From the IMG/VR virus record IMGVR_UViG_3300045988_081405: 43,753 bases of DNA. One strand, given 5' to 3'. The DNA is from a virus. The notes beneath the pieces are model-generated. The model was not told where the DNA came from. It searched no databases and was given only the letters and a program-made list of their open reading frames with translations. Shown here one piece after another: positions 934 through 43,753 of the stretch; the first letter of the stretch is position 1; the number at the start of each line of letters is the position of its first letter. A program made the translations under genes and the position numbers.

Positions 934-1464
934 TTATTTTTTTAAAATCAAATCTACCTTAGCATGTACTACATCGAGCAGTCCTGCTATAGCTGTATTT
1001 CCACCATCTCGCATGTTTTCTAAAATAGATAAAAACTCTACGGATCCGAGATATAACCATACTAGATTTACAGCGAAAGCGTATTGACCTGCCATGTAAT
1101 CAAAACACCATGCAGCTCCAGTCGCTAGGCAATAGGTCAATACCTTTGTTACAAACGGCTTCCGCATGTGTTTAGATGATATCAACCCCTTACCCCATGC
1201 TACAGGAATAGCAACGTATTTATCCCAACTGCTTATATTATCAGGATTAGCTCCCATATCAATTAGCATTTTATAGCTAATAGCCGACCAACGAGTAATT
1301 AAATCAAGAAATACCAGGATAATGAATATACCCAATACCTGAATATGCTTTAAACCAAGGATGTATATTGCTACTTCGGCAATAACTGCAAGCATAGCTT
1401 TAATTGCAAAAGACTCTGATAGAGTTCTCCACGCATCATCTATAAAGTTAATTACTTCTTGCAT
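934..1464 (-). CDS. Holin (multi-TM phage holin family)
   Basis: 176 aa with several hydrophobic helices, located directly upstream of the endolysin. Confidence 0.7.
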   Translation of the reverse strand: MQEVINFIDDAWRTLSESFAIKAMLAVIAEVAIYILGLKHIQVLGIFIILVFLDLITRWSAISYKMLIDMGANPDNISSWDKYVAIPVAWGKGLISSKHMRKPFVTKVLTYCLATGAAWCFDYMAGQYAFAVNLVWLYLGSVEFLSILENMRDGGNTAIAGLLDVVHAKVDLILKK

Positions 1465-1632
1465 CTATTCTCCTTTCGTTGGTTCGGTTTCACTTTCGTT
1501 TTCGTTTAAAGACAATAAAGCATTATGTACACATCCTTCAGTAGGACACGTGCCATCATCATTGAGTACTTCCCAACAGTACTCACAAAATTCCATTACA
1601 GGAACTTTGCTTTCTCCAACATATTTAGGCAT
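1465..1632 (-). CDS. Small zinc-ribbon-like protein (55 aa), not in the ORF track
   Basis: Hand translation gives MPKYVGESKVPVMEFCEYCWEVLNDDGTCPTEGCVHNALLSLNENESETEPTKGE. RBS GGAGGTG is upstream. Its stop TAG abuts the holin ATG. Cys pattern is CxxC...CxxxxC. Confidence 0.55.
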   Translation of the reverse strand: MPKYVGESKVPVMEFCEYCWEVLNDDGTCPTEGCVHNALLSLNENESETEPTKGE

Positions 1633-1633
1633 A

Positions 1634-2026
1634 TTATTGCACCTCCTTGATTCGTGCTACCATTTCATTATTCAATTTGATATATTGCGCACTAATTGCA
1701 TTAGTAGGTTTCCCCATAAGTAGCAAGCGGCGTTGAGCTTCTTCTAATGTTTTAAATCGAGGTTCATACTCTGCTTTAATAGCATTAATTTTATCTTCTT
1801 TTGTTGGAACATATTCAACTATAGGTGGATCTACAAATTCACCATTTACATACGCTTTACCACTGATGAATTGTGATTGCATTTCACTATCCCCTGTTAC
1901 GATGTTAGCAGATGGATATGTTTGTTTGGCTAATTGTTCTGTTTCTTCAAGAGTATCCGCATGAACACCTACAACGTAGGAAGTTTGGCGAACACCATGC
2001 TCATTTAATACAAATACATAGTTCAT
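1634..2026 (-). CDS. Hypothetical protein (possibly tail-fibre associated or assembly-like)
   Basis: 130-aa ORF with an AAAGGA RBS. First minus-strand gene after the shufflon block. No recognisable motif. Confidence 0.5.
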   Translation of the reverse strand: MNYVFVLNEHGVRQTSYVVGVHADTLEETEQLAKQTYPSANIVTGDSEMQSQFISGKAYVNGEFVDPPIVEYVPTKEDKINAIKAEYEPRFKTLEEAQRRLLLMGKPTNAISAQYIKLNNEMVARIKEVQ

Positions 2027-2052
2027 ACTTTTATCCTTTCTTGGAGGTAGAA

Positions 2053-2958
2053 ATGAAATTAATCGAGAAATTAAAAGGGGCTCATGAACGCCCCTATGTT
2101 GCGTATAAAGTTGTTGGTTATTATTCCTCTTATAATGAGGCTATGGATGCATTATCCCATGTGCATACATTAGATGATGTGTATCATTCGTGGTTAGCGT
2201 TACATTCATTAAATGTTTCATCACATACCATGAAAGGATATGAATGTGCTTATCATCATGTATCATCAATATCTCACCGCCCTATCAACGAAATCACATA
2301 TATGGAGTTGCAAAATATAATATCAGATATGCTAAATAGCGGACTCTCTTATTCCTCGTGTAAGAAAGTTCGCTCTTTACTTAATCAACTATATTCATTT
2401 GCAATTATTAATGACTGGTGTTCAAAATCATACAGTCAATATTTGAATATTGGTCACAATATTCCAGTTCGTCCACGTAAGGTGTTTACTACGAATCAAA
2501 TCAACCGACTTTGGAATATCAATGCGGAATTACCTTTAATGCTCTTATACACTGGAATGCGTGCCAGTGAATTAATTAATCTAAAAAGTACAGATATTAA
2601 TCGAAAACAACGATATTTAAAAGTTACATCAAGCAAAACTAAAGCAGGAATCCGCATCATTCCCATCCATCATCGCATATGGCCATTTATTGAATATCGA
2701 CTATCTAATAAATGGATCATAGAGGAAAGGAATTATGTTTCTCTTTCGCACGCCTTTAAGTTAGCCATGAAAGCTATTAATGCTAAACACACGCCCCATG
2801 ATTGCCGTCATTCATTCGCTACTAGATTAGATGATGTAGGTGCCAACTACAATGCTAAACGATTATTGCTCGGTCATGCATCATCCAATGTTACAGATGG
2901 TGTATATACTCATAAATCACTTAGGCAATTACGCAAGGCAATCGAAATGCTTAAATGA
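2053..2958 (+). CDS. Tyrosine recombinase (predicted shufflon-specific invertase, Rci-like role)
   Basis: GGAGG RBS at 2043-2047 and ATG at 2053. Motifs are TGMRASEL (Arg), HDCRHSFATRL (HxxR) and LLGH...GVYTH (His/Tyr). Its stop codon abuts the first CCAAGGGGGAA site. Confidence 0.85.
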   Translation: MKLIEKLKGAHERPYVAYKVVGYYSSYNEAMDALSHVHTLDDVYHSWLALHSLNVSSHTMKGYECAYHHVSSISHRPINEITYMELQNIISDMLNSGLSYSSCKKVRSLLNQLYSFAIINDWCSKSYSQYLNIGHNIPVRPRKVFTTNQINRLWNINAELPLMLLYTGMRASELINLKSTDINRKQRYLKVTSSKTKAGIRIIPIHHRIWPFIEYRLSNKWIIEERNYVSLSHAFKLAMKAINAKHTPHDCRHSFATRLDDVGANYNAKRLLLGHASSNVTDGVYTHKSLRQLRKAIEMLK

Positions 2959-2969
2959 CCAAGGGGGAA
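2959..2969 (+). repeat. Recombination core site A (CCAAGGGGGAA)
   Basis: Exact 11-mer, immediately after the recombinase stop codon and at the start of silent cassette A. Confidence 0.8.
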
Positions 2970-3190
2970 GAGTAAATATTACTGTAGGGCGTAATATTTA
3001 CAATGATGACACTGTATACCCTATTGCATTTAATAATCTCCCATCAGTTAATATTATTAATATTGCTGATGCATTAGACCAAGATGGATGGGTAACTAGC
3101 GCAATTAAATCTATCACAAATTTAAAATTCACTTATATGACTGCACAAAATAGTGTAACTGGCATTAGTTGGATTGCTATTGGTAATTAG
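2960..3190 (+). other. Silent tail-fibre C-terminal cassette A (76 aa, QGGRVNIT...WIAIGN)
   Basis: Open frame beginning QGG at the core site. No start codon or RBS of its own. Shares the YPIAF and IAIGN-stop motifs with the expressed fibre tip. Confidence 0.75.
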
Positions 3191-3201
3191 CCAAGGGGGA
3201 A
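3191..3201 (+). repeat. Recombination core site B (CCAAGGGGGAA)
   Basis: Exact 11-mer directly after the cassette A stop TAG. Confidence 0.8.
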
Positions 3202-3431
3202 GAAAATTAAATTTAACCATTTATGATGGTAAAAAATATGATGTTCAATTTCCTATTTCTTATGCAAAAGAATGTATTGGTGTTTTACAAACATTAGAAT
3301 GGCCTATTGCTATTGGTGGTGCATCAGTTGCTTATACCGATAAAAGAACTACTACTGGTTATACAATCGTTGCTGATGCATCTAGTGCAGCATATAATAG
3401 TGATTTATTTTATGTTGCGTTCGGAATTTAG
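3192..3431 (+). other. Silent tail-fibre C-terminal cassette B (79 aa, QGGRKLNL...YVAFGI)
   Basis: Open frame from QGG at site B, in a different frame from cassette A. No start or RBS. Carries the FPISY and VAFGI-stop motifs. Confidence 0.75.
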
Positions 3432-3442
3432 CCAAGGGGGAA
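3432..3442 (+). repeat. Recombination core site C (CCAAGGGGGAA)
   Basis: Exact 11-mer directly after the cassette B stop TAG. Confidence 0.8.
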
Positions 3443-3696
3443 ATGATAGCGATACACAGGCCTATTACGATATAGGAAGTCAACAAAGGCAAGAGCAGTT
3501 TACTTTCCCGATAGCATTTAAATTTAAGCCATTACATGTACATCCATATGCAGTTAATAAAGTAGAATTAAGACATTTATCACGGATTGGAATTAGTGAT
3601 AGCCAAATTACACCTACTGGATTTACAGCTGGAATAAGCGAGAATTCTAATGTAATAGAACAAATTAAAATGAGGTATATTGCTGTTGGTATTTAA
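3433..3696 (+). other. Silent tail-fibre C-terminal cassette C (87 aa, QGGNDSDT...YIAVGI)
   Basis: Open frame from QGG at site C, in the third frame. Carries the FPIAF and IAVGI-stop motifs. Confidence 0.75.
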
Positions 3697-3707
3697 ATAC
3701 CAACAGC
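3682..3707. repeat. Perfect 26-bp palindrome GCTGTTGGTATTTAAATACCAACAGC at the convergent ends of cassette C and the expressed fibre tip
   Basis: Both convergent reading frames end with the identical codons GCT GTT GGT ATT TAA, and their stop codons overlap. Confidence 0.9.
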
Positions 3708-4679
3708 AAGCCAACAACCATTATTACGAGACTTAGGATAGTTAGTGTTATTGCTACCACTTACCATTTTAAACGTGCTCGCCGTGATCGCCTTTGGTCT
3801 AATCATCATCTCGTGCCATGGAGTTGGCTCATCTAGCATCATAGGAAGTACTGCCAGTACTTCGTTAAAACGAATAGGAAATGTTATAGATGCAATTTCA
3901 GGGACAAATTTTCCCCCTTGGATAATTAAATTCCCAAGCAGCTTGCCCAAACAGATATACCACGCATTTACATTGCTGAAATCATATCTGATTCCAAGGC
4001 CTGTTGCTTTCTCACTTTCCAAGGCATTGACTACATCGGTTGCGTTTTTGATGTTTAGTCCGCTCAAAATGGTTTTCACAAGTTGTAAAGTAGGTGCTTT
4101 TGCTAATGAATCGCTATCATCTACGCTAGTAATCATGTTATTTACTTGCTGAATAACAGCGTTGAAACGATCGTCATGTGCATGTTCGTCCTTATTATGA
4201 TGAGCAATACCATCTTCTAGTTGTTCATAAGTAATGTACAAATGACTTTGATAATTTACCTGAACAACAGCATCGCCTACCCCTAATTGAATACCTAACA
4301 TTTTTTCGTCAACGCTTGTATTCGGCGGAATATAACTAGCATTAGAGCCTGCATTTGTATAAGCAAATAATTGCTCTTCACCTTCTTCACCGAGTTTAGC
4401 GAACAACCCCAATTCTCTTGCGAAGAACCCTACTGTCAATCCACTATTGCTAACAGTAGACACAGCTTCGATTTCACCGTTGCCTAAATGATTGATTTTA
4501 GGAACATTTCCATCCATCAAACGATGTTTTAGGCCTGTCATAGTTTCGATAGTTTCACCATTTAACAAGCCATCGCCTAATGAAATTTTAGTAAATATAA
4601 TTGCAGAATGAGTTCTGATTGACTCCGTAACCATATTCTTCCCTTGATTGGTGGTTACAATTCTTCCATAATCACTCAT
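3693..4679 (-). CDS. Tail fibre protein (tail-collar fibre N-terminus; currently expressed C-terminal cassette D at 3693-3920)
   Basis: N-terminus is like P2/Mu-type fibre N-domains. Follows the baseplate genes. Contains the inverted core site inside the codons for IIQGGK. Confidence 0.8.
   Translation of the reverse strand: MSDYGRIVTTNQGKNMVTESIRTHSAIIFTKISLGDGLLNGETIETMTGLKHRLMDGNVPKINHLGNGEIEAVSTVSNSGLTVGFFARELGLFAKLGEEGEEQLFAYTNAGSNASYIPPNTSVDEKMLGIQLGVGDAVVQVNYQSHLYITYEQLEDGIAHHNKDEHAHDDRFNAVIQQVNNMITSVDDSDSLAKAPTLQLVKTILSGLNIKNATDVVNALESEKATGLGIRYDFSNVNAWYICLGKLLGNLIIQGGKFVPEIASITFPIRFNEVLAVLPMMLDEPTPWHEMMIRPKAITASTFKMVSGSNNTNYPKSRNNGCWLAVGI
3911..3921 (-). repeat. Recombination core site D (inverted copy, TTCCCCCTTGG on the plus strand) inside the tail-fibre gene
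   Basis: Reverse complement is exactly CCAAGGGGGAA and encodes Q-G-G in the fibre frame. Confidence 0.8.
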
Positions 4680-5311
4680 CGACTACCTCCATAGATTTTA
4701 ATTTTATCAACATTAATAAGCACCATTCCGATTTTAGGCTGTCCTGATGCACGGATAACAGGATCACTTTTAGCGTATTTTATTGTTTGCTTATCAAGTA
4801 CATTAACCACACCACCTATACAGAGTTGCGTATGTGCTTGATGTAATTCAGCAACAACATACGTCAAATGAGCTGGCTTGTATTTATCGACCAGCTCACG
4901 AACTGTTTCAACGTAAGCAGCTACGTCTAATGCAACTTTAAATTCATTAGGTTTAGTGTTTTCTAAAACATGAGCACCACATACAGGAACTATTTGATTA
5001 ATAATTGTTTCTAACTGTTTAACGGTAATAGTTTTAGTACCTTGAATTTTCACTAACAGATTTTGCCGACGTTGATTTATTGTTAAATGCTTGTTAGTTT
5101 TTATACCATATACTCTTTCCCAATCAGAAAGGCCCCATGTAGCACTTTCAACAAACAACTGTTTGCATATATCAATAATAAGCAATCTTTGCTTTTCATG
5201 TTCTTCACTTAAAGCGTCTTCAGTAGCTTTAAATGAGCCATCATTCTTAAGAAATTTAGGTAAATAGCGAAGCACATCAACTTTATAAGTCCTTAATAGT
5301 TCAAATATCAT
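4676..5311 (-). CDS. Baseplate/tail protein, XkdU/DUF2313-like (Mu gp48-like)
   Basis: Synteny after baseplate J; sequence resembles the YmfQ/XkdU family. Confidence 0.6.
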   Translation of the reverse strand: MIFELLRTYKVDVLRYLPKFLKNDGSFKATEDALSEEHEKQRLLIIDICKQLFVESATWGLSDWERVYGIKTNKHLTINQRRQNLLVKIQGTKTITVKQLETIINQIVPVCGAHVLENTKPNEFKVALDVAAYVETVRELVDKYKPAHLTYVVAELHQAHTQLCIGGVVNVLDKQTIKYAKSDPVIRASGQPKIGMVLINVDKIKIYGGSR

Positions 5312-6345
5312 TGTATGTTCACCTCACCTAATGTAGGTAAATCTTCATCGTTAATAACAATGCTTTTATCATCATTGTTAATTCGCAAATTTTGATAGTC
5401 AATAGCGCCAGCATCGATAATAAAGCTACCTACTTTTGCAATCGATAATTTATTAATTTCACCGTTATTAATGACTGACTTTTCAAGATCTATTAAATAG
5501 TCATTCATCATTTCCTTGAATTTGTCTAATACAAAGCCTTTACCTTCAACAGTAGCCGTTATATTAATCACTTTAGGAGTTGCACTAACTACAGTTACCA
5601 TAGCACCCATAGGGCGAACGCTTTCAATGTAATCTTTAACCGCTGTTATTAGCTCAGTAGAGGCTTGTTTAAACTCAGAATTAATAATAATGACTTTAAC
5701 AGAACCAGGACCATTCCATGTAGGTATGATTTTCACACCCCCTACACCAGGAACAGACATAGCCCATTCATAATAGTGCATTTTATTTCCGGATGTGCCA
5801 GGATAGCGAACATGCAACAAATAGCGTTCGCGTAAATTATCATCGCTCTCTTCTTCGAAACCGTCTTTTGTTGGTTGTGCATTGATAACGCTGTTAATAC
5901 CAGGAATTGACATCGGAATTGTATCAATCGTATTTACTGCTACATTACCACCACTACCAGTTGCAATAGCTTGAACCTTAACTTCTTGACTGCCGTTAAT
6001 CGTTGCAGTTTCTAGCGTTTCGAATAGTACTCCGCCAGCGGTAGAAAATTGACTACCTTTAGGCAATACTCCATTGCCTTTAACAGTAACAGATCCTATC
6101 GCATTTGTAGCTACCTTTCGAATGATACCAGCTTCTTTAGCACGCATAGTTAAGAAATCGCCGTATGATGTATCCGCAAACGCTACTTTATAGAGTTCAC
6201 CTAATTCAACATAGGTCTTCATAAATTCAATAGCATTAGACGAGAATACATCATATTCAAATGTACCCTCAAATTTACTCATCGGAAGTTGCGATTGTAA
6301 TTGGAGGCTTTTTAAAATCTCGTCTGATGTTGGAATATTAAACAT
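5308..6345 (-). CDS. Baseplate J-like protein (XkdT/Mu gp47-like)
   Basis: 345 aa; position and family-like sequence. Confidence 0.7.
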   Translation of the reverse strand: MFNIPTSDEILKSLQLQSQLPMSKFEGTFEYDVFSSNAIEFMKTYVELGELYKVAFADTSYGDFLTMRAKEAGIIRKVATNAIGSVTVKGNGVLPKGSQFSTAGGVLFETLETATINGSQEVKVQAIATGSGGNVAVNTIDTIPMSIPGINSVINAQPTKDGFEEESDDNLRERYLLHVRYPGTSGNKMHYYEWAMSVPGVGGVKIIPTWNGPGSVKVIIINSEFKQASTELITAVKDYIESVRPMGAMVTVVSATPKVINITATVEGKGFVLDKFKEMMNDYLIDLEKSVINNGEINKLSIAKVGSFIIDAGAIDYQNLRINNDDKSIVINDEDLPTLGEVNIQ

Positions 6346-6766
6346 TTATATTAATACCTCCATATATCGTTGTTAATTCAATTTGACAATCGACCTTATC
6401 ACCATTCGCATCGAACTCGATACTATCAACCGACTTAATATAAGGGTTAACCATAAGGCACTCTATAATCACTCGTTTAAGTTCTGAATAGCGTTCACCA
6501 ACGCTCATGACTTTACCTATGAACGGCTTCAACTCAATACCATATCGAGTAGAATATGCTAGGTATTGATTGCGTTCGGTTTTAAGTGCTTTGTATACCC
6601 AAATTTTCAACGCTTCATCACCCTCTAAGGCTATTCGTTTACCACTTGAGTCATATCGGAATGTATCGCTTTCAAAATTCCAATCATATTCACGAAATAA
6701 TGGTAAATCATTTTGACTAGACTCAACTGTACGAGTTAACCCGGCAAAAGGATATTCTTCGCTCAT
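6338..6766 (-). CDS. Baseplate protein, XkdS/DUF2634-like (gp25/W-like)
   Basis: Size and synteny in a PBSX-like baseplate operon. Confidence 0.6.
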   Translation of the reverse strand: MSEEYPFAGLTRTVESSQNDLPLFREYDWNFESDTFRYDSSGKRIALEGDEALKIWVYKALKTERNQYLAYSTRYGIELKPFIGKVMSVGERYSELKRVIIECLMVNPYIKSVDSIEFDANGDKVDCQIELTTIYGGININV

Positions 6767-7185
6767 AGTTTCACCACCTTTTGACCTATGTAATAAAGCT
6801 GTTCACCTTGTCCGTATACAGGAAATACAGTTACTTCATCACCTACTCGCAAGGTATCAGTCATATTAATGGTATCGGTATAGTCATTGTGAATATCATG
6901 CGTATGACTAGCAAATTCTGCTAACCCACCACCGCCTGACCGTGGTTGTGTTTCGCTTATGATGTGGCCCTCAGCTTCACGATGATGTCCTGGCTTCCAA
7001 TAGTCATTCAAATATATTTGCTCGTTGGTAATGTCGATATTATCAACGCGAATAACCAGGTTAGGAAATGGCGATGTAACAAGTCCAATTCGCATCCCCA
7101 TAGGCTGTTCGCCTTTAGCTATACCGTGAATTGTATCAACCATTTTAGCCATCGAATGTGCAGCACTAGGAATATCATTCAACAT
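6763..7185 (-). CDS. Baseplate spike/plug protein, XkdR/DUF2577-like (Mu gp45-like)
   Basis: Size and synteny. Confidence 0.55.
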   Translation of the reverse strand: MLNDIPSAAHSMAKMVDTIHGIAKGEQPMGMRIGLVTSPFPNLVIRVDNIDITNEQIYLNDYWKPGHHREAEGHIISETQPRSGGGGLAEFASHTHDIHNDYTDTINMTDTLRVGDEVTVFPVYGQGEQLYYIGQKVVKL

Positions 7186-8314
7186 AATGAATTTCTACCT
7201 TTCTTTTAGTCGATTTTCGAGTAGACCTTCGACCTTTACCCTTAGGAGTTTTATTTTTCTTTTTAGCCTCACGCTCTAGGCGTTTCTTTTCTTTAGCTTC
7301 TAAGGAATGGTCTACCTTTTCTTTAGTCATAAGATTTTCAAATTCAATCTCGAGTTTCATGGTATGTTGACCGTTTTTGAAATCATGAGTATCACTCTTG
7401 ATCCAGAACTTGCCACTTAACTCGGTAATCACATCTCTAATTTCAACAGAATACGAGGATAATGCGTCATAATCACCTAAACAATCAATCACGCCAGTCC
7501 GTTCAGGTTTCTTAAATATATCCTTTACTTCATCCGCCGTGTTTTTGTTCTTATTCTCCTTATAGACTGCTTGTATCATAGAGTAGCGTTGAATTTGGTC
7601 GTCTTTACTTTCATACCTAACAAAGTTACCTTTATCATCAACAATCATGACTTTATTAATCATGTTTTCAATTGACTCTTTAAATGATGAGTCAGTAATA
7701 TTCCTGTATTGGTCTATTACTAGTCCTTCAATCAATGAACCTTTCTCTATGACGTCGAGTTCGTCTCCCTCCATCATAGCTTGATATTTTTTGTTGGTCT
7801 TTTTAGCGGCCTCTGTATAAGCCATAAGTATGATTTGATAACCTGACTTGTTATTAGCTATAAAAGTTATCTTTTCTTTGGTTTCAGCAAGGTTACCTAC
7901 TTTAATCCCCATTTCCTTGCATACAGCCTTTGCTATATCTTCAGCGGTCATATTGGTGAATTTACGAGTAGTCTTTGATTTACTTAATATAAACATGTTG
8001 TCATAACATGTTACTGTAATTCGTGATGCAGATGTTTTGCGTTCGGTGGTATATATATTACCTACGAATTGCACATCGCCATCTTCTGAGTACCCTTTAA
8101 TGGTTTCACCGATACTCACTGTATAGATAGGCCAGTTCGGATCGCGTGGTTCTTGTACTAAGACAAATTCAAGTTTTCTAGCTGCTTGAATACGCGAACC
8201 GGACCAGTTAACATGCTCAACTAAATGAGTAATATCATTTTCAACAGGAACTTTTTTCTCTTCGCCAGTCTTTTCATCTTTAACTGTTTTAGTGCCAATA
8301 TGTTTAACTATCAT
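7175..8314 (-). CDS. Tail/baseplate hub protein, XkdQ (late control D-like)
   Basis: 379 aa; position after the XkdP-like protein and the tape measure; basic C-terminal tail. Confidence 0.6.
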   Translation of the reverse strand: MIVKHIGTKTVKDEKTGEEKKVPVENDITHLVEHVNWSGSRIQAARKLEFVLVQEPRDPNWPIYTVSIGETIKGYSEDGDVQFVGNIYTTERKTSASRITVTCYDNMFILSKSKTTRKFTNMTAEDIAKAVCKEMGIKVGNLAETKEKITFIANNKSGYQIILMAYTEAAKKTNKKYQAMMEGDELDVIEKGSLIEGLVIDQYRNITDSSFKESIENMINKVMIVDDKGNFVRYESKDDQIQRYSMIQAVYKENKNKNTADEVKDIFKKPERTGVIDCLGDYDALSSYSVEIRDVITELSGKFWIKSDTHDFKNGQHTMKLEIEFENLMTKEKVDHSLEAKEKKRLEREAKKKNKTPKGKGRRSTRKSTKRKVEIHYVE

Positions 8315-8315
8315 A

Positions 8316-9023
8316 TTATTTCACCTTCAACTTTCTAAGCTGGCTAAGATTATTAATCGCTAAATTCTTTAGGTCATTTGATTGGATAATGCGTTCATAA
8401 TGACGATAATTGCCATATGCCTTTTTAGCAGCATCCAACACATCAGAACCTTTACTGAACAATGTTGCTGTTTTAGGTTTTTGAGCAACAGAAGGCCTAT
8501 CTTTTAAGCCTGTCGTTTCATCAACTGGCTTATCATCACCAGTGGCAGGCGTGTTAAGGTCTTTATGTTCCTTAAATGTTAGCGTGTAATACATATCCCC
8601 TGTATTTTCCTGTTTCTTATATGGGAATGACTCGATTCCCATCATTAAATTAATAGGGCCATCGCTTATGATGACCCTAACAGGTTTCTTTGATGTTTTC
8701 CACTTTTCTATGAGGTTAATAATTTCAATAGGCTTACGCTTATCGCCAACAATAAACGGATAATCTTTCGCTGGAAAAAATCCTTCGAATGATAATGTTT
8801 TGAGTTTAGGGTTTCCAAATAAAAGCACCTCACCTATTTGAGTAATATCAACAGTTTTGTTCTCCTGTTCATTACCGACCTCATATTTAACTGGAGTAAC
8901 AGGAAGCACCAACTTTTCTTCATCTTGCGAAATAATGATAGTTGGTAGTTCTCTTGCTCCTTTACCAAATGCGAATGATAAAAGCGATAAGGCACGCCCT
9001 ATACCGCTAACGAATTTTGACAT
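8316..9023 (-). CDS. Tail protein, XkdP-like with a LysM-like C-terminal segment
   Basis: Immediately downstream of the tape measure. C-terminal GSDVLDAAKKAYGNYRHYERIIQSNDL resembles LysM. Confidence 0.5.
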   Translation of the reverse strand: MSKFVSGIGRALSLLSFAFGKGARELPTIIISQDEEKLVLPVTPVKYEVGNEQENKTVDITQIGEVLLFGNPKLKTLSFEGFFPAKDYPFIVGDKRKPIEIINLIEKWKTSKKPVRVIISDGPINLMMGIESFPYKKQENTGDMYYTLTFKEHKDLNTPATGDDKPVDETTGLKDRPSVAQKPKTATLFSKGSDVLDAAKKAYGNYRHYERIIQSNDLKNLAINNLSQLRKLKVK

Positions 9024-22936: not shown

Positions 22937-23128
22937 TTATTTAAGTATTTCATTTGATTTGTGTTTAAGTTTTCCATGTTCTCGTATGCACATACCACCA
23001 ACATGCTTTTTAGCGTGTGTATGAGTTATATATGACTGGCATAAGCCATCATATTCAATAGAATTAGCTGTGCATAGACCTTTTCTATTGTTCAAGCATT
23101 TACGCTTAATACAATTAATAACTGTCAT
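22937..23128 (-). CDS. Small Cys-rich protein (DUF1540-like)
   Basis: 63 aa containing 6 Cys. Confidence 0.45.
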   Translation of the reverse strand: MTVINCIKRKCLNNRKGLCTANSIEYDGLCQSYITHTHAKKHVGGMCIREHGKLKHKSNEILK

Positions 23129-23691
23129 TTCAAACTATCAATAAACTCACGTGTTAAGTCATAATCACTTGTGAATCTACCTTTTTTTGTGGTTGTTACT
23201 GTGTTAGATCCACGCGATTTAATACCGCGAGCTGTAACGCAACTATGCTTCGCTGTGATATGAACAATTACATCCTCACTATCAGTAGCAATAGAAATAA
23301 CTTCGGCGATGTCTTCACCGATTTTTTCTTGTAGTTGTAATCGTTTACAGCACATTTCAGCAATGCGAGGAATTTTAGACAACCCAATCACCTTGCCATT
23401 AGGAATATATCCTACGCTAATATTCATATCGTACATTAACGCTAGGTGATGTTCACACATGGAAAACGTTTCAATATCTTTCACTACAACCATTTGAGAG
23501 GTTTCAACTTCAAATGACTTGCCAAACTTTTCGGCGATTTGTTCGTTTGTGTAGTTCATACCCTCTAATAATTCTAAATACATTTTTGCAGCACGTTTAG
23601 GCGTTTCAACAATACCTTCACGTGTTAAATCTTCACCAAATCCTTTCAAAAGGAGTTTGATGCCTTGCTCAATCATATCTTGATTCATCAT
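23125..23691 (-). CDS. folE: GTP cyclohydrolase I
   Basis: 188 aa with the CEHHL motif and ETPKRAAKMY. Confidence 0.9.
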   Translation of the reverse strand: MMNQDMIEQGIKLLLKGFGEDLTREGIVETPKRAAKMYLELLEGMNYTNEQIAEKFGKSFEVETSQMVVVKDIETFSMCEHHLALMYDMNISVGYIPNGKVIGLSKIPRIAEMCCKRLQLQEKIGEDIAEVISIATDSEDVIVHITAKHSCVTARGIKSRGSNTVTTTKKGRFTSDYDLTREFIDSLK

Positions 23692-23695
23692 ATAG

Positions 23696-24340
23696 CTACA
23701 CTCCTTTCATATCAGGCGGCCAAATAAACTTATGAATTTGTAATTGTAACCTAACGCCTTGTAGGTTATATGTTTTCATATAGTCAACAATGTCTTTAGG
23801 TTCAATCTTGCCAAATACTGGTGATACATAAACTTGTGCTTTAAACTCATTTTCTTCAATCAGTTGACGCATGCGGTTAAGATCATCAAGACTACCGACT
23901 ACGAATTTAATAACATCGCAGTCCTCTAAATCTTGTAATGCTTCCCCATTATTCATAAACTCCTCTTGCTTAGAAGAAGGGCACTTGTAATCAACTGTGA
24001 ACATGACGTTTGGATAATTGCCGTATGAAACCACCGGATTAATGCTGCCGTTAGTTTCAATATTAACGAAATACCTATTCATAACGTTTAGTAATTCCGT
24101 TAAATCTTGCAATAGTGGCTCACCACCTGTGATAGTTACATTTACATTCCCATAACCATCGACTACTTGCATAATTTCTTCAACAGTCATTTCTTTACCA
24201 CCGGTAAAGCTGTATTCAGTATCGCAGTAAGAACAGCGTAAATTACATTCTGCCAAGCGAATAAACGTACATAATTCACCAGCTCGTGTGCCTTCGCCCT
24301 CAATACTACTAAATATTTCAATCACGTTCATATGTTGCAA
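23696..24340 (-). CDS. queE: 7-carboxy-7-deazaguanine synthase (radical SAM)
   Basis: IEGEG and the CNLRCSYCDT radical-SAM cluster motif. The true start is probably the MNVIEIF Met. Confidence 0.85.
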   Translation of the reverse strand: MQHMNVIEIFSSIEGEGTRAGELCTFIRLAECNLRCSYCDTEYSFTGGKEMTVEEIMQVVDGYGNVNVTITGGEPLLQDLTELLNVMNRYFVNIETNGSINPVVSYGNYPNVMFTVDYKCPSSKQEEFMNNGEALQDLEDCDVIKFVVGSLDDLNRMRQLIEENEFKAQVYVSPVFGKIEPKDIVDYMKTYNLQGVRLQLQIHKFIWPPDMKGV

Positions 24341-24656
24341 TATTCCCTTCTGTTTCTTGTACTTCTACCTTGTAGCAGCACTCACCTAACTGGTCGCATA
24401 TCCATTTAGCCATGTTTTCAGCTGTAGGGTTAATATCACCTACTACATCATTAATATGAGCATGGTCCAATCGGTCATGAATAGAACGTTTAATATGAGT
24501 AAAGTCCATAATCATTCCATTATGATTTAGTTTTTCACCTTTCATAAATACAGTTACTATCCAATTATGGCCGTGCAAGTTTTGACATTTGCTTTCATAG
24601 TCTAAATTTAATCTATGACTACCTGCAATCTCCATTCGTTTTGATACATAATACAT
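24318..24656 (-). CDS. queD: 6-carboxy-5,6,7,8-tetrahydropterin synthase
   Basis: 112 aa, T-fold, with the SHRL...C..LHGHN motifs. Confidence 0.85.
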   Translation of the reverse strand: MYYVSKRMEIAGSHRLNLDYESKCQNLHGHNWIVTVFMKGEKLNHNGMIMDFTHIKRSIHDRLDHAHINDVVGDINPTAENMAKWICDQLGECCYKVEVQETEGNIATYERD

Positions 24657-24666
24657 ACATTTCCTC

Positions 24667-25566
24667 CTAATCTTGACTACCTGCTACGCTTTGATAGTCT
24701 AATTTATTTAACAATGCTGATATAGCACAATCGGCTGTTCTAGGTAACGATTTTTCTTTTACCCCAAACAGCCGAGCTTGCTCCATATATTGTTGTCTAA
24801 TTTCTTTATTGTGATAGTTAATGTGCATATTGCCTTTTGACGTTCGGCTAATTCCAAACTGTAAAGGTGCTAGCCACGATGTACTATCTGCTGAGGTACA
24901 GAACTTATTTTGTTTTAGCATTTTAAGATCCGTACAGCCTAATAAGTGAATATCAATTTCAGGCTTTTTATTCTTAATGTACCATGCTAGTCTATGCGTA
25001 TCTTCTCTAAATGTTTTAGGGTTAGTGATACGCAACTCAGGAACACTAATCGCGATATACTCGGCAAATTCAATTAAGCGGTCTAACCCTTTACGGCCAT
25101 CCTCTTTGTGAAATACGTTGATTTGTCTATTCTTTAACTTATTACGCATCCTATATCGCAACTTCCAAGCATCTTCTGGAGATAACACCTTTTGACAATC
25201 AACTTCAACGCATGTCTGCTGTAAATCATTACTGTTAGTAAACTTGATTAATTTATCTTGCCAATCGACCAAATCATCATATGTAAGTTGTTTATCTTTT
25301 GCAGCACCAAACATTAAGGTAAATAACCCACTATCTTGAATTACATGTTTAAATTGCAAATCTTTTCTCATCATTGGAGCATCAGATTTCAATGTAAAGT
25401 CGTCTGTTATTTTTTTGTTGACAATAAACGGATAGCAAGTATACAAGCGATAATTCACGTCTGCTAACTTCAACCCAACAATGCTATTAAAGACATTATC
25501 TGAACCAGCAAAATGGATTTTGATGTTGTTTCCGAACAAGAACGGCACCTCCGTTTGTATCTTCAA
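24667..25566 (-). CDS. dpdA: DpdA-like DNA transglycosylase (TGT superfamily)
   Basis: VIQDSGLFTLMFG (catalytic Asp region) and SADSTSW motifs; context with folE, queD and queE. The start is uncertain (TTG at 25566, or a downstream TTG after GGAGGTG). Confidence 0.7.
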   Translation of the reverse strand: MKIQTEVPFLFGNNIKIHFAGSDNVFNSIVGLKLADVNYRLYTCYPFIVNKKITDDFTLKSDAPMMRKDLQFKHVIQDSGLFTLMFGAAKDKQLTYDDLVDWQDKLIKFTNSNDLQQTCVEVDCQKVLSPEDAWKLRYRMRNKLKNRQINVFHKEDGRKGLDRLIEFAEYIAISVPELRITNPKTFREDTHRLAWYIKNKKPEIDIHLLGCTDLKMLKQNKFCTSADSTSWLAPLQFGISRTSKGNMHINYHNKEIRQQYMEQARLFGVKEKSLPRTADCAISALLNKLDYQSVAGSQD

Positions 25567-36355: not shown

Positions 36356-38032
36356 TTATTTAGCCTTCAATTCATTAACTTCTTTAGTTAACGCTTCAAC
36401 GAGCTTTTCGAGTTGGCTAATACGAGCATTTTCGCCTTTGGCTTCCGCTACATAGTCGCTGCCTTTACCAACCTTGAAAGCGACGTTTGCGGTAAATTGC
36501 TTTTCAGCACCTAAACTCATACCAGTGCCGAACATTATTCTTTCATTAGGACGATAAAACGCACCTAATGCAACCGCGTTGCTACTTCTATAATGGCCGT
36601 AGCTAATAGCGTAGGACGCTTTGTCGTCCTTATTAAAATCTAATGGATGCAAGCCTGCCAATGCTGCAGAACTAGCTCCCAATTTGTTCAAACGTTGATT
36701 TGTTGCATTGATTTCGTTTAAACCTGCTTGGCTTTGTGCTTTTAGTTGTCGCATGTTAACTGCATCAGCATCCGCAACTCCATCCGCTACATCGTGAATT
36801 TGTTGATTACCAGCAGTAATATTTTGAGTTGTGAACTCAATATGTTTGCCGTTGCTATCAGCAACCATTCCATCCATATTGAATTGAGCATTGTCTAAAT
36901 TGTCTGTGTTTTCTACTTTGAAGCCATTAGCTCCATATTCGGAGTTAATTTCTCCATTAAATACATGGCTACTATTTTTGCCAATATAGTTATGTTGTGG
37001 ATCATTAACCGTGCCCAATTGAATGGAATTCATGTTAACCAGGTCTTTATTCACATGAACCGCGAACTCTTTACCACCATCAATATTTGTTGATTGTGTA
37101 ACAGTTGTATTTCTTCCTTCGGCAACGGTAGTAAATTTAAGAGCGTTAATCACTGCATTAAGTTGGGAGCCGTTGATTGCGTCGGTAGATGTACCATCTA
37201 CTCTACCTGCTGCCACGTTGGTTAGTGTTCGCTTATAGTTTTGAACACCACCATTACCAGCTTTATTATTTGCTCCGATAGATACAGTACTGTTAGCTAC
37301 ACCGCCGGCGAAATCATATTTTTCACCATTGATGAAAATGTGGTCTGTGGAAATAACTTCTTCAGTAGTAGCGTTGGTACCTAACGCTACAGAATTTTGC
37401 ACATCGGCTACAGTATTATTACCGAGGGCCAAACTATCTACTGCTACTGCTTGGCTATGAGAACCTACAACAGTTGCCCCTTGATTTTTAGTTTTGTTAT
37501 TTGAACCAAATGTTAGCTGTTCTTTAGAATTATCAAGCACTTGGTTACTATAACCAACTACTGCGCCTTGCCCACTTTTTACTTCGCCATTGTTAGAGCC
37601 GACTACCGTCGCGTTTTCAGCGTTAACGGTATTAGTTCTACCTAATACAACTGTTGACTCGCCGTTTGCGTACGCACCATTACCGATAGCAATAGTGTTA
37701 TAGGCAGCAGTACGAGCTTGACTGCCGATAGCTACGGTATACTCGATAGTTGCTTCTGCATGTGCACCGTAAGCGAAACTATCACGGCCCAACGCTTTAC
37801 TATCATTGCCACCTGCGAACGAATTCGTGCCAGCTGCGATATTGTTTTCACCAAACGCTACCGCATTATTCCCTTTAATAGTATTTTGATACCCTACAAC
37901 ACCTGCACTCTTAACGCCTGCTTCTACAACGTTATCTGTACCACCAATAAAGTTATTGTCAGCAGCCAATACATTGACCGCCAAGGAACTAATTGCTAAT
38001 GCTGTTACCATTGCTTTTTTATTTGTATTCAT
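36356..38032 (-). CDS. YadA-like trimeric autotransporter adhesin with a C-terminal coiled-coil extension
   Basis: Signal peptide (SSLAVNVLAADN), repeated head motifs (NS.A.G), INGSQLNAV and VNMRQLK neck motifs, and a YadA-anchor-like AALAGLHPLDF...VAFKVG. This is followed by 35 aa of heptad sequence. Confidence 0.8.
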   Translation of the reverse strand: MNTNKKAMVTALAISSLAVNVLAADNNFIGGTDNVVEAGVKSAGVVGYQNTIKGNNAVAFGENNIAAGTNSFAGGNDSKALGRDSFAYGAHAEATIEYTVAIGSQARTAAYNTIAIGNGAYANGESTVVLGRTNTVNAENATVVGSNNGEVKSGQGAVVGYSNQVLDNSKEQLTFGSNNKTKNQGATVVGSHSQAVAVDSLALGNNTVADVQNSVALGTNATTEEVISTDHIFINGEKYDFAGGVANSTVSIGANNKAGNGGVQNYKRTLTNVAAGRVDGTSTDAINGSQLNAVINALKFTTVAEGRNTTVTQSTNIDGGKEFAVHVNKDLVNMNSIQLGTVNDPQHNYIGKNSSHVFNGEINSEYGANGFKVENTDNLDNAQFNMDGMVADSNGKHIEFTTQNITAGNQQIHDVADGVADADAVNMRQLKAQSQAGLNEINATNQRLNKLGASSAALAGLHPLDFNKDDKASYAISYGHYRSSNAVALGAFYRPNERIMFGTGMSLGAEKQFTANVAFKVGKGSDYVAEAKGENARISQLEKLVEALTKEVNELKAK

Positions 38033-40078: not shown

Positions 40079-40387
40079 ATGAACGATTTCAATGTACTAG
40101 AACAAGAATTCTTTAACACAATAAAAGCAATTCAACCAGGTTTCAATCATGAACTGCGTAGGCTATGTGATGGCACTATTGATTTTGAAATTGGTAGAGT
40201 TAAGCTAACCGGTCGCAAGTATAAAATTCAATTACAATTAAATGATGGCGCTATATGGTTAACAGGCACAAAAGAGGATATATTTAACGCTATCCCTTTA
40301 ATGTTATCTTCTACTCTGCAAAGCGTTATGCTCACATCATCAAATAAGAAGAAATTAATATATATAGGTAGCGACGATGCAATATAA
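40079..40387 (+). CDS. Hypothetical lysogeny-module protein
   Basis: 102-aa ORF between the ImmA-like and int genes. Confidence 0.5.
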   Translation: MNDFNVLEQEFFNTIKAIQPGFNHELRRLCDGTIDFEIGRVKLTGRKYKIQLQLNDGAIWLTGTKEDIFNAIPLMLSSTLQSVMLTSSNKKKLIYIGSDDAI

Positions 40388-41435
40388 CTTCACTGTTCGT
40401 AAAAAAGACAAAGGCTATCAAATCATTGTCGGATATAAAATAGGCCGTACCTGGAAGCAAAAATCAAAACAAGGTTTCAATACACAACGCGAAGCCAAGG
40501 CATACGGCGAGCAGATTTTAGACGAAATAAAAAAGAACGTCATATCACCGCTCGACGATACAATGCAGGATATAACGTTTATAGAGTTCTATTCGGTTTA
40601 CATGAGTGAAAAGCACGAGCTGTCAATCAATTCACGAAGAACATACGATAATATAATATATAAAGACTGTACAAAACTTCATAATATGATGATTAAGGAT
40701 ATTAACCACAAGGATATTATGAACATATTAGTTAACTCTAATAAATCAGCAGCAAGTAAGAACCTTTGCATTGTATTATTAAAAGCTATATTTAAGCATG
40801 CTATATCGCCGTATAGGCTTATTAGAGATAATCCATGTGCTAGTATCAAGAAATATAAAAAAGCGTCAAATAGCGATGTTAATACAATTAGCAACGAAGA
40901 TATGGATACACTATTTAATAACATTAAAGATAAATACCCTATTTATTATCTCGTATGCTGTATCGCTCGCTATACTGGAGCACGTTATGGTGAAATAGTC
41001 GGTTTATGTTGGGAAGATATAGATTTTAACAACAAAACCATTTCTATTAATAAGCAATGGTCTCGCAAGACGGATCATGAACACGGCTTTAAAACACCTA
41101 AAAGCGTTAATAGTATTAGGACTATTCCTATACCTCAAATACTAATAGATGAATTACATAGTATTAGCAGTAATAAAACTGGTCGCATATTCAACTTCAA
41201 GAATAGCAGTACATCACGAGTGAATTATATTATAAGCAGATATTTGCAAGATAAGACTATTCATATGTTTAGACATACATATGCTACCTCTCTACTGGCT
41301 AATGGCGTTGACATGCAAACCGTAGCTAGCTTATTAGGAGATGGACTAAATACAGTGATTAATACCTATATCCACTATTCACAAGAAATGCGAAATAATG
41401 CTGCCAAAAGCGTTGAAAATATCTTTAGTAAATAA
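40377..41435 (+). CDS. int: Phage integrase (tyrosine recombinase)
   Basis: ARYTGARYGEI (Arg), HMFRHTYATSLL (HxxR), LLGD...TYIHY (Tyr), and an N-terminal arm-binding-type domain. Confidence 0.9.
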   Translation: MQYNFTVRKKDKGYQIIVGYKIGRTWKQKSKQGFNTQREAKAYGEQILDEIKKNVISPLDDTMQDITFIEFYSVYMSEKHELSINSRRTYDNIIYKDCTKLHNMMIKDINHKDIMNILVNSNKSAASKNLCIVLLKAIFKHAISPYRLIRDNPCASIKKYKKASNSDVNTISNEDMDTLFNNIKDKYPIYYLVCCIARYTGARYGEIVGLCWEDIDFNNKTISINKQWSRKTDHEHGFKTPKSVNSIRTIPIPQILIDELHSISSNKTGRIFNFKNSSTSRVNYIISRYLQDKTIHMFRHTYATSLLANGVDMQTVASLLGDGLNTVINTYIHYSQEMRNNAAKSVENIFSK

Positions 41436-43698: not shown

Positions 43699-43753
43699 TG
43701 TTCGTTTATTATTCTTTAATTCCGCTTTCAACTCGTTCAATGATACGGAGGCT
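43699..43753. repeat. Terminal direct repeat, identical to 1-55
   Basis: Exact 55-bp identity with the window start. Confidence 0.97.

Follow-up and report, generated by a model that had tools for sequence, protein, structure and literature searches.

A probable multiple-inversion switch of tail-fibre tips (shufflon) beside a predicted tyrosine invertase in Veillonella phages

What does a tyrosine recombinase gene do when it is followed by a row of open reading frames (ORFs) that lack start codons and that face a tail-fibre gene on the opposite strand? This question is raised by positions 2053 to 4679 of the IMG/VR record IMGVR_UViG_3300045988_081405, a stretch of 43,753 nucleotides (nt) that we refer to as the window and that is a complete temperate contractile-tailed Veillonella phage. 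We conclude that the locus is very probably a multiple-inversion host-range switch of the tail fibre, a shufflon, in which DNA inversion at short sites would fuse one of several alternative C-terminal tips to a constant fibre stem. The shufflon reading is supported for the phage family and, as far as sequence comparison can tell, is very likely to hold for the window phage itself. The features of the locus are listed in Table 1.

The locus is organized around an 11-nt core, CCAAGGGGGAA. Four exact copies occur in the window, at 2959, 3191 and 3432 on the plus strand and at 3911 on the minus strand, and no further copy with one mismatch or fewer was found in the window. In shuffled windows the mean number of copies was 0.25, and four copies were reached in none of 100 shuffles. 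All four copies lie in an open frame and encode Q-G-G. The three plus-strand copies each begin a silent cassette, and these cassettes lie in three different frames (CAA at 2960, 3192 and 3433), each directly after the previous stop codon (TGA at 2956-2958, TAG at 3188-3190 and TAG at 3429-3431). The inverted copy lies inside the fibre ORF (3693-4679, minus strand, 328 amino acids, aa), where it separates a constant part of 253 residues from a tip of 75 residues; the constant flank ends …AATTTAATTAT, directly before the core. The preliminary description of this DNA had reported the four copies and where they lie, their flanks, the Q-G-G frame, the start-less ORFs of 76, 79 and 87 aa, the inverted copy ahead of the last 75 aa of the expressed fibre, the motifs YPIAF, FPISY, FPIAF and FPIRF and the endings WIAIGN, YVAFGI, YIAVGI and WLAVGI, and our results agree with it in each of these points.

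Table 1. Features of the predicted shufflon locus, in window coordinates
Feature	Position	Strand	Description
Shufflon invertase (predicted)	2053-2958	+	301 aa, armless tyrosine recombinase; SAM-like core-binding domain and catalytic domain
Site A	2951-2969	+	Left arm TTAAATGA (final recombinase codons and stop), then invariant core CCAAGGGGGAA at 2959-2969
Silent tip cassette A	2960-3190	+	76 aa from QGG, and stop; without own start codon or ribosome-binding site; PF21882 E 8e-5
Site B	3183-3201	+	Left arm GTAATTAG (end of tip A and its stop), then core at 3191-3201
Silent tip cassette B	3192-3431	+	79 aa and stop; PF21882 E 6.9e-5
Site C	3424-3442	+	Left arm GAATTTAG, then core at 3432-3442
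Silent tip cassette C	3433-3696	+	87 aa and stop; PF21882 E 7.2e-5, H_lectin E 4.8e-4
Palindrome	3680-3709		Perfect, 30 base pairs; 15-nt arms, 100% complementary, 0 nt apart (inverted repeat I11)
Tip D, expressed (fibre-fused)	3693-3920	-	75 aa from QGG, and stop; PF21882 at fibre residues 249-327
Site D	3911-3929	-	Inside the fibre gene; core at 3911-3921, left arm TTAATTAT at 3922-3929; encodes ...L-I-I-Q-G-G...
Fibre constant N-terminal part	3921-4679	-	Residues 1-253; phrog_7037 tail fiber protein, E 3e-30 over residues 1-173

We collected related loci for comparison. A query spanning the junction between the fibre constant part and the core, AATTTAATTATCCAAGGGGGAA, was searched against viral and metagenome collections and returned 73 loci, which together with six loci from Veillonella genomes gave 79 (numbered below with the prefix L). 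The window and these loci, 693 kilobases in all, contain 231 exact cores, compared with approximately 0.1 expected from composition. The great majority (208) stand before a complete tip ORF of 50-140 aa read in frame with Q-G-G; 21 reach the end of their contig, and two precede tips of aberrant length. Frequent occurrence of the 11-mer outside cassette boundaries, which the preliminary description had put forward as evidence that would speak against a shufflon, was not found: none of the 231 exact cores lies anywhere other than at a cassette start.

Alignment of the sites revealed that conservation extends beyond the core. A logo of 170 unique sites describes a conserved site of about 19 base pairs (bp) that is asymmetric, with a semi-conserved left arm (consensus tTAAtTa., T at -3 in 98% and A at -6 in 88% of sites) followed by the invariant CCAAGGGGGA(A), and no dyad symmetry is present in the logo. 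The left arm is kept in three settings that differ in what it encodes: within the fibre constant part, at the end of the recombinase and at the end of a tip. Some indication of where strands would be exchanged is provided by a core variant with T at position 11, which stays with one tip family, H, whatever the left flank or the orientation. Since the variant travels with the tip, the crossover must lie 5' of position 11, and no informative core variant within a genome places it more finely than left of that position.

This variant, CCAAGGGGGAT, has a distribution of its own. Tip H is adjacent to the recombinase in six of the seven loci in which it occurs (L014, L024, L029, L051, L061 and L069), the seventh being at position 1061 of L059, and tip H fused to the fibre was never seen; the variant site may recombine poorly. 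A second variant, ACAAGGGGGAA, altered at position 1, is found at all three sites of L003 (Veillonella montpellierensis DSM 17217; 6941, 7170 and 7605), indicating that these sites changed together, and the contig of this isolate stops exactly at one of them.

The arrangement of the sites suggests how the locus would operate. The recombinase would pair the fibre-internal site D with one of the opposed sites A, B or C, and inversion of the DNA between the paired sites would fuse a different tip in frame to the constant part. Each inversion product would be in frame because every tip reads Q-G-G through the core. Tips C and D, which lie tail to tail, would form a central unit that inversion cannot divide. 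By breadth-first enumeration, 12 arrangements can be reached from that of the window by inversion alone, and among them all four tips are expressed.

Rearrangements of this kind are found among the related loci. In relatives, each of the four window tips has homologues in the position fused to the fibre: 8 loci carry one of tip A there, 13 of tip B, 11 of tip C and 16 of tip D, and a further 23 have other tip families, or more divergent A- or B-like tips. An example is L001, with a recombinase 92% identical to that of the window, where the fibre carries tip C and tip D has the place beside the recombinase, the flanks having been exchanged exactly at the core; tip D is also silent beside the recombinase in L012, L063 and L068. 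For the window itself, the alignment breakpoints against the nearest relatives L076, L047 and L042 fall at 2959/2969, 3432/3441 and 3911. Site A is a breakpoint against all three of these loci, site C against L076 and L042, and site D against L076, L042 and L014. In L076, which has the constant region most similar to that of the window (94%), tips A and B are inverted and tip A is fused to the fibre. Inversion is also seen between far closer pairs. L014 and L069 are 99.8% identical and differ by a single inverted segment of 544 bp, bounded by the two cores, which form the alignment overlaps, and tip E replaces tip C on the fibre. Similarly, the recombinase genes of L035 and L045 are 100% identical and their cassette orders differ. 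Altogether, 33 arrangements are represented among the 37 loci that are complete from recombinase to fibre.

Further support for inversion is provided by the order of the cassettes. Inversion between opposed sites must keep '>' cassettes ahead of '<' cassettes and can never split a central tail-to-tail pair. No violation of the '>...> <...<' order was found in the 79 loci, and in 30 of 30 loci a tail-to-tail unit of tips C and E, between which no core lies, is unbroken while the cassettes around it change places. Assembly behaviour points in the same direction, as 19 of 93 true contig ends are found near a core, at a distance of either 0-2 nt or 43-45 nt. The longer distance is what a graph branch would give at k = 55, a k-mer size common among assemblers (11 + 44 = 55), and one of the core-located ends belongs to the isolate genome of V. 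montpellierensis DSM 17217. Contig breaks at cores are an indirect sign that alternative junctions may coexist within samples. Overall, the fusions of tips A, B, C and D in relatives, the breakpoints at cores and the topology support the earlier prediction that inversion between D and A, B or C would fuse another tip in frame.

We next consider what the cassettes encode. The four window tips independently match PF21882 (tail fibre gp53-like C-terminus) at E 5e-5 to 8e-5, with scores of 23.5-24.1 bits that lie just below the gathering cut-off of 24.9. Across the loci there are at least 25 tip families of 66-93 aa, with 14-30% pairwise identity and a hypervariable interior, and these have in common the Q-G-G start, a (F/Y)PI(A/S)(F/Y) strand and a (W/Y)(I/L)A(I/V)G-x ending. 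PF21882 is matched by 20 of 22 tip families at E <= 0.01 (best 3.4e-8), and H_lectin by three. A profile built from the 22 families matches the foot of the R1-type pyocin fibre (6CXB, E 9.8e-6; 6CL5, 4.3e-5) with weaker matches to the F2 pyocin fibre and to AP22 gp53 (4MTM), and overall the matches range from E 1e-5 to 6e-2. These similarities suggest that the tips are lectin-like distal receptor-contacting domains homologous to the R-type pyocin fibre foot. As this foot binds receptors, tip switching would be expected to change the host surface structure bound by the virion, and receptor specificity probably differs among tips.

The cassettes also bear the mark of coding constraint. In an analysis of nine tip families, eight of which occur both silent and expressed and one of which (H) is silent only, variable sites fell at codon positions 1, 2 and 3 in the numbers 168, 115 and 341 (p = 7e-30). 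Even though about two thirds of loci carry them silent, the cassettes still evolve as coding sequence. Decayed cassettes number only two of 210: a 165-aa ORF running through a B-like tip at 3408(-) in L050, and a tip A cut at 45 aa at 8346(-) in L079.

The constant part belongs to a fibre gene that follows genes for a Mu Gp48-like protein (4676-5311) and Baseplate_J (5308-6345). The exact fibre protein is on record as DAN03937.1, 'tail-collar fiber protein', and has no NCBIfam match. At the other end of the gene, the palindrome in Table 1 consists of the convergent ends of tips C and D, which both end in ...AVGI and a stop with identical codons and whose ORFs overlap by 4 nt. It may be the scar of a rearrangement away from the cores, as most relatives have tip E at this position, and it could form a hairpin in either transcript.

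The constant parts and the cassettes differ in how well they are conserved. The recombinases, 91-97% identical in amino acid sequence among the phages, and the tips are far better conserved than the fibre constant part, which is 35-55% identical to that of the window except in L076. The invertase and cassette block thus seems, from these identities, to move between fibre backbones as a module. In L017 (IMGVR_UViG_3300045988_006772, 6357-8400) two fibre constant regions face each other across one C>/E< unit with no recombinase between them, which is either a chimeric assembly, joined by way of the cassette unit that both share, or a true arrangement with two fibres.

Which enzyme would invert the DNA? 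The gene that ends at site A encodes a protein that matches PF00589 (Phage_integrase) at E 1.3e-18, with weak matches to SAM-like domains. Among solved structures it is closest to XerD (1a0p, E 1.6e-11), and the catalytic motifs of the two align; in this alignment the R-K-H-R-H-Y set is complete (R170, K197, H249, R252, H275 and Y285), and the C-terminus lies 16 residues past the catalytic tyrosine. The gene is preceded by a ribosome-binding site (GGAGG, 2044-2048), and its stop codon abuts the core of site A. A second recombinase is encoded at 40377-41435. This integrase carries an Arm-DNA-binding domain (Arm-DNA-bind_4), unlike the shufflon recombinase, which has no arm domain and shares 26% identity with it over the catalytic core, so that the two are distinct, as had been proposed. 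The shufflon recombinase gene adjoins the first core in all 37 complete loci, and in mapped relatives down to 61% identity its stop abuts the first core and the same core is used. No match to a serine recombinase or to the resolvase family was found among the 29 other window ORFs scanned. The recombinase at 2053-2958 is therefore the predicted inversion catalyst, because its position is invariant, because its stop lies inside the first site and is kept there to 61% identity with the same core, because the phage has a separate arm-type integrase and because those 29 ORFs include no serine invertase.

The 5' end of the recombinase gene contains, on the minus strand, a hairpin that resembles a terminator (2076-2095; AGGGGC...GCCCCT and a T run). 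This single match to the consensus, no more than the chance expectation, could stop late transcripts that leave the fibre gene through the shufflon.

Several observations weigh against an active shufflon in the window phage or against a system of inversions only. The related loci were recruited by junction sequence, which biases the collection towards intact sites. Public assemblies with the exact fibre protein all come from one run, ERR589696, and have one arrangement, and none of the three chimeric isoforms predicted for this fibre is on record by exact match. A convincing recombinase promoter was not found: promoter-like matches in 1400-4900 were fewer than in shuffles, the promoter and terminator scan of this region being no reliable guide to recombinase expression. 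The number of cassettes varies from two to six, and the difference between L058 and L070 is exactly one core-to-core unit, of 232 bp. Deletion or gain at direct sites therefore also occurs over evolution, and the system is not strictly inversion-only. Finally, the central pair of the window is C/D and not the C/E of most relatives, which requires at least one past event other than core-to-core inversion.

Some of these observations would be accommodated by a fossil shufflon, frozen in the window phage, with passive cassettes and a fibre that always carries tip D, the family having shuffled once or elsewhere. A single arrangement in a single source sample, the lack of chimeric isoforms of the exact fibre on record, the past non-inversion event implied by the C/D pair and a recombinase promoter signal that is not significant are all consistent with such a fossil. 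We nevertheless consider it improbable, as the window retains four perfect cores, three intact silent tip ORFs and every catalytic residue, the cassettes are under coding constraint across the family, and very close relatives differ by inversions. On the shufflon reading, inversion is probably ongoing in the window phage.

Tips might alternatively have been swapped between co-infecting phages by general recombination, the 11-mer being kept for a Q-G-G hinge and the recombinase being irrelevant. Such mosaicism would fit constant regions that are only 35-55% identical to that of the window while tips and recombinase are conserved, and the conservation of Q-G-G at the protein level in nearly all tips. 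An identity of 11 bp is, however, too short for efficient homologous recombination, the core is nucleotide-invariant in 231 copies, synonymous positions included, and the left arm is conserved in three different coding contexts. Mosaicism also leaves inverted start-less silent cassettes beside a recombinase unexplained. Together with an orientation order that holds in 79 of 79 loci, the precise inversion between otherwise identical genomes and the contigs that break at cores, this makes mosaicism highly improbable as the source of the different tips.

That the adjacent recombinase is instead a second integrase or an Xer-like dimer resolvase, with a host or phage invertase acting in trans, is scarcely credible: its closest cultured-phage homologues (26-33% identity) are ordinary integrases between lysis and lysogeny modules, the nearest NCBIfam entries are Xer families, all below cut-offs, and inversion with no recombinase gene beside it has been proposed at another bifidophage locus (PMC6109161), but the recombinase stop is part of the first site in mapped relatives, including 61-65%-identical ones, the gene lies immediately beside the cassettes in every complete locus, and the phage has an arm-type integrase of its own and no serine recombinase among the other ORFs scanned.

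The relatives of the recombinase in cultured phages, identified by tblastn, are at most 33% identical to it. Butyrivibrio phage Idris, Ruminococcus phage phiRgPS_6 and Fusobacterium phage phiHugo were examined as analogues and rejected, as their homologues are ordinary integrases between lysis and lysogeny modules and no cassettes are present. A megablast search of window positions 1900-6400 against 50,697 phage records gave no match. In human metagenomes the recombinase family comprises more than 1,000 protein clusters, the nearest of which contains 1,653 sequences, and its members are called 'integrase' where they are named.

How does the locus compare with known inversion systems? The closest in architecture is the Rin shufflon, described in the Bifidobacterium prophages Bb423phi1, Bl157phi1 and Bl30698phi1 (Mavrich et al. 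2018, PMC6109161) and in clade 1 prophages of Eggerthella lenta in 2022 (PMC8778435). In both the Rin and the Veillonella-phage loci, small promoterless cassettes for alternative C-termini of a receptor-binding protein are flanked by an armless tyrosine recombinase, XerD-like and about 290-300 aa long, which is not the arm-type integrase of the phage, and the cassettes are only weakly similar to each other. A short asymmetric repeat precedes each cassette (11 bp in Bifidobacterium, 8 bp in Eggerthella), an inverted copy splits the constant and variable parts, and inversions between related genomes occur exactly at the repeats. For Rin, several isomers have been seen. The Eggerthella cassettes have H-type lectin domains, and tip C of the window has a weak H_lectin match.

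The differences from Rin are equally clear. Over 270 aa the Veillonella-phage recombinase shares only 20% identity with Rin (pairwise E 9e-5), at similar lengths (301 versus 289 aa) and with the same armless layout, so that what is shared is a kind of architecture and not a protein family. The site is CCAAGGGGGAA here, compared with TTCCCTAACCC in Bifidobacterium and TTCCGTAT in Eggerthella. The host is a diderm Negativicute (Firmicute), whereas the Rin hosts are actinobacteria. The window phage is contractile-tailed (sheath, tube, sheath initiator and Baseplate_J), whereas the bifidophage Rin locus adjoins a tape-measure and distal-tail module and resembles the receptor-binding proteins of lactococcal phages TP901-1 and 1358 (PMC6109161). 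The tips here are 66-93 aa, of the PF21882 or R-pyocin-foot type, with a core translated as Q-G-G. For this comparison, in which the 289-aa Rin was used, we collected 60 Rin-type loci from the viral collection by a two-rix pattern. These 60 viral contigs from IMG/VR (L086-L145) carry pairs of TTCCCTAACCC rix sites 280-310 nt apart, and in five of six loci inspected a 289-aa armless recombinase abuts the terminal rix site. Rin-type shufflons are, judging from these contigs, common in gut viromes.

The R64/IncI1 shufflon (Rci, sfx, pilV; NC_005014 was the sequence compared) is alike in that a tyrosine recombinase, encoded at one end of the cassette array, performs multiple inversions among opposed short asymmetric sites and thereby swaps the C-termini of an adhesin in frame. 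Its target is, however, a conjugative type IV pilus adhesin and not a phage fibre. Rci has 384 aa and is thus 83 residues longer than the window protein, which is 22% identical to it (E 0.004) and is without the C-terminal extension, and the window recombinase is not specifically Rci-like. The sfx site is 19 bp long and consists of a 7-bp spacer and a 12-bp conserved arm. Its sequence is unrelated to that of the window site. In the window phage and its relatives, the asymmetric site joins an invariant core to a semi-conserved left arm and orientation order is kept, and loss or gain of cassettes at direct sites is also seen. The preliminary description had held that tyrosine-recombinase shufflons are known from R64 and not as a standard feature of phage tail fibres. 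This claim of novelty is overstated, as the Rin prophages had been reported in 2018 (PMC6109161) and 2022 (PMC8778435).

The classical switches of Mu (Gin), P1 (Cin), e14 (Pin) and p15B (Min) also choose tail-fibre C-termini by DNA inversion, and Min has multiple crossover sites and many isomers (PMC6109161). These enzymes are serine recombinases that act at dyad-symmetric sites with a Fis-dependent enhancer, whereas the window enzyme is a tyrosine recombinase (PF00589) with asymmetric sites. A further difference is that no fibre-assembly gene was recognised within the invertible DNA of the window. Between the recombinase and the lysis genes, beyond the shufflon as seen from the fibre, lies a 130-aa ORF (1634-2026, minus strand) with no Pfam match, the position of which is kept in other assemblies of the source run; it could encode a constant fibre-assembly factor. 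At the level of the tip itself, the feet of R-type pyocin and AP22 gp53 fibres (6CXB, 6CL5, 4MTM, PF21882) share the ...TFPIAF...(W/Y)(I/L)A(I/V)G-x scaffold. These fibres have one fixed tip, whereas the tips here are modular, bounded by recombination sites and fall into at least 25 families.

The remainder of the window is that of a temperate contractile-tailed phage. Its ends are identical over 55 nt (1-55 and 43699-43753), so that the assembly is circular and the complete genome is 43,698 bp; a k=127 assembly of the same run, of 43,825 nt, gives the same circle length. The gene set includes terminase, SPP1-type portal, scaffold, capsid, sheath, tube, sheath initiator, tape measure and baseplate, and also fibre, holin, M15 endolysin, integrase and repressor. 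Searches of the window for transfer RNA genes and Rfam families gave no match. The DNA comes from a human oral metagenome (ERR589696, PRJEB6997), and relatives of the recombinase are found in Veillonella genomes; V. montpellierensis DSM 17217 (L003) and Veillonella sp. VA142 (L005) have related phages. Two further regions were noted. At 23125-24656 on the minus strand, genes for GTP cyclohydrolase I (FolE), a radical-SAM protein (QueE-like) and a protein of the 6-pyruvoyl-tetrahydropterin synthase family (QueD-like) follow in a row, which looks like the 7-deazaguanine precursor pathway of the kind that some phages use for DNA modification; a 299-aa ORF beside them (24667-25566) has no Pfam match. 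At 36356-38032, also on the minus strand, a 558-aa trimeric autotransporter adhesin of the YadA type is encoded, with head repeats, stalk and membrane anchor, and it may be a lysogenic-conversion gene that affects adhesion of the diderm host.

The principle of a host-range switch by DNA inversion is already known, from Gin, Cin and Min and then from Rin, a phage tyrosine-invertase shufflon acting on a receptor-binding protein, and the present locus overturns nothing. What appears to be new is the phage group, the recombinase lineage, the site, the tip fold, and the setting in a contractile-tailed phage of a diderm host. No description of such a system for Veillonella phages was found in the searchable literature, which does not cover all journals, and a 2025 long-read preprint mentions inversions in passing only. 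It is possible, though we put this forward tentatively, that the Veillonella-phage invertase is an independently evolved minimal tyrosine invertase of 301 aa, with neither an arm domain nor an Rci-type C-terminal domain, which would carry out multi-site, inversion-biased recombination with nothing more than an asymmetric site of about 19 bp. It would then serve a widespread natural 'plug-and-play' collection of lectin-like tips, at least 25 in number, in Veillonella phages of mouth and gut. Such an enzyme would offer a tractable model of directionality control in armless tyrosine recombinases, a question raised for Rin (PMC6109161), and a compact tool for multiplexed inversion. With 33 natural arrangements, a 19-bp site and a small recombinase at hand, this question would be experimentally approachable, and the tip library would be a ready-made set of Veillonella-binding domains. 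Recognition of the locus as a host-range shufflon would also correct the 'integrase' annotation and explain why assemblies break at the fibre, and a host range predicted for one of these phages from a single assembly would capture only one of several expressible tips.

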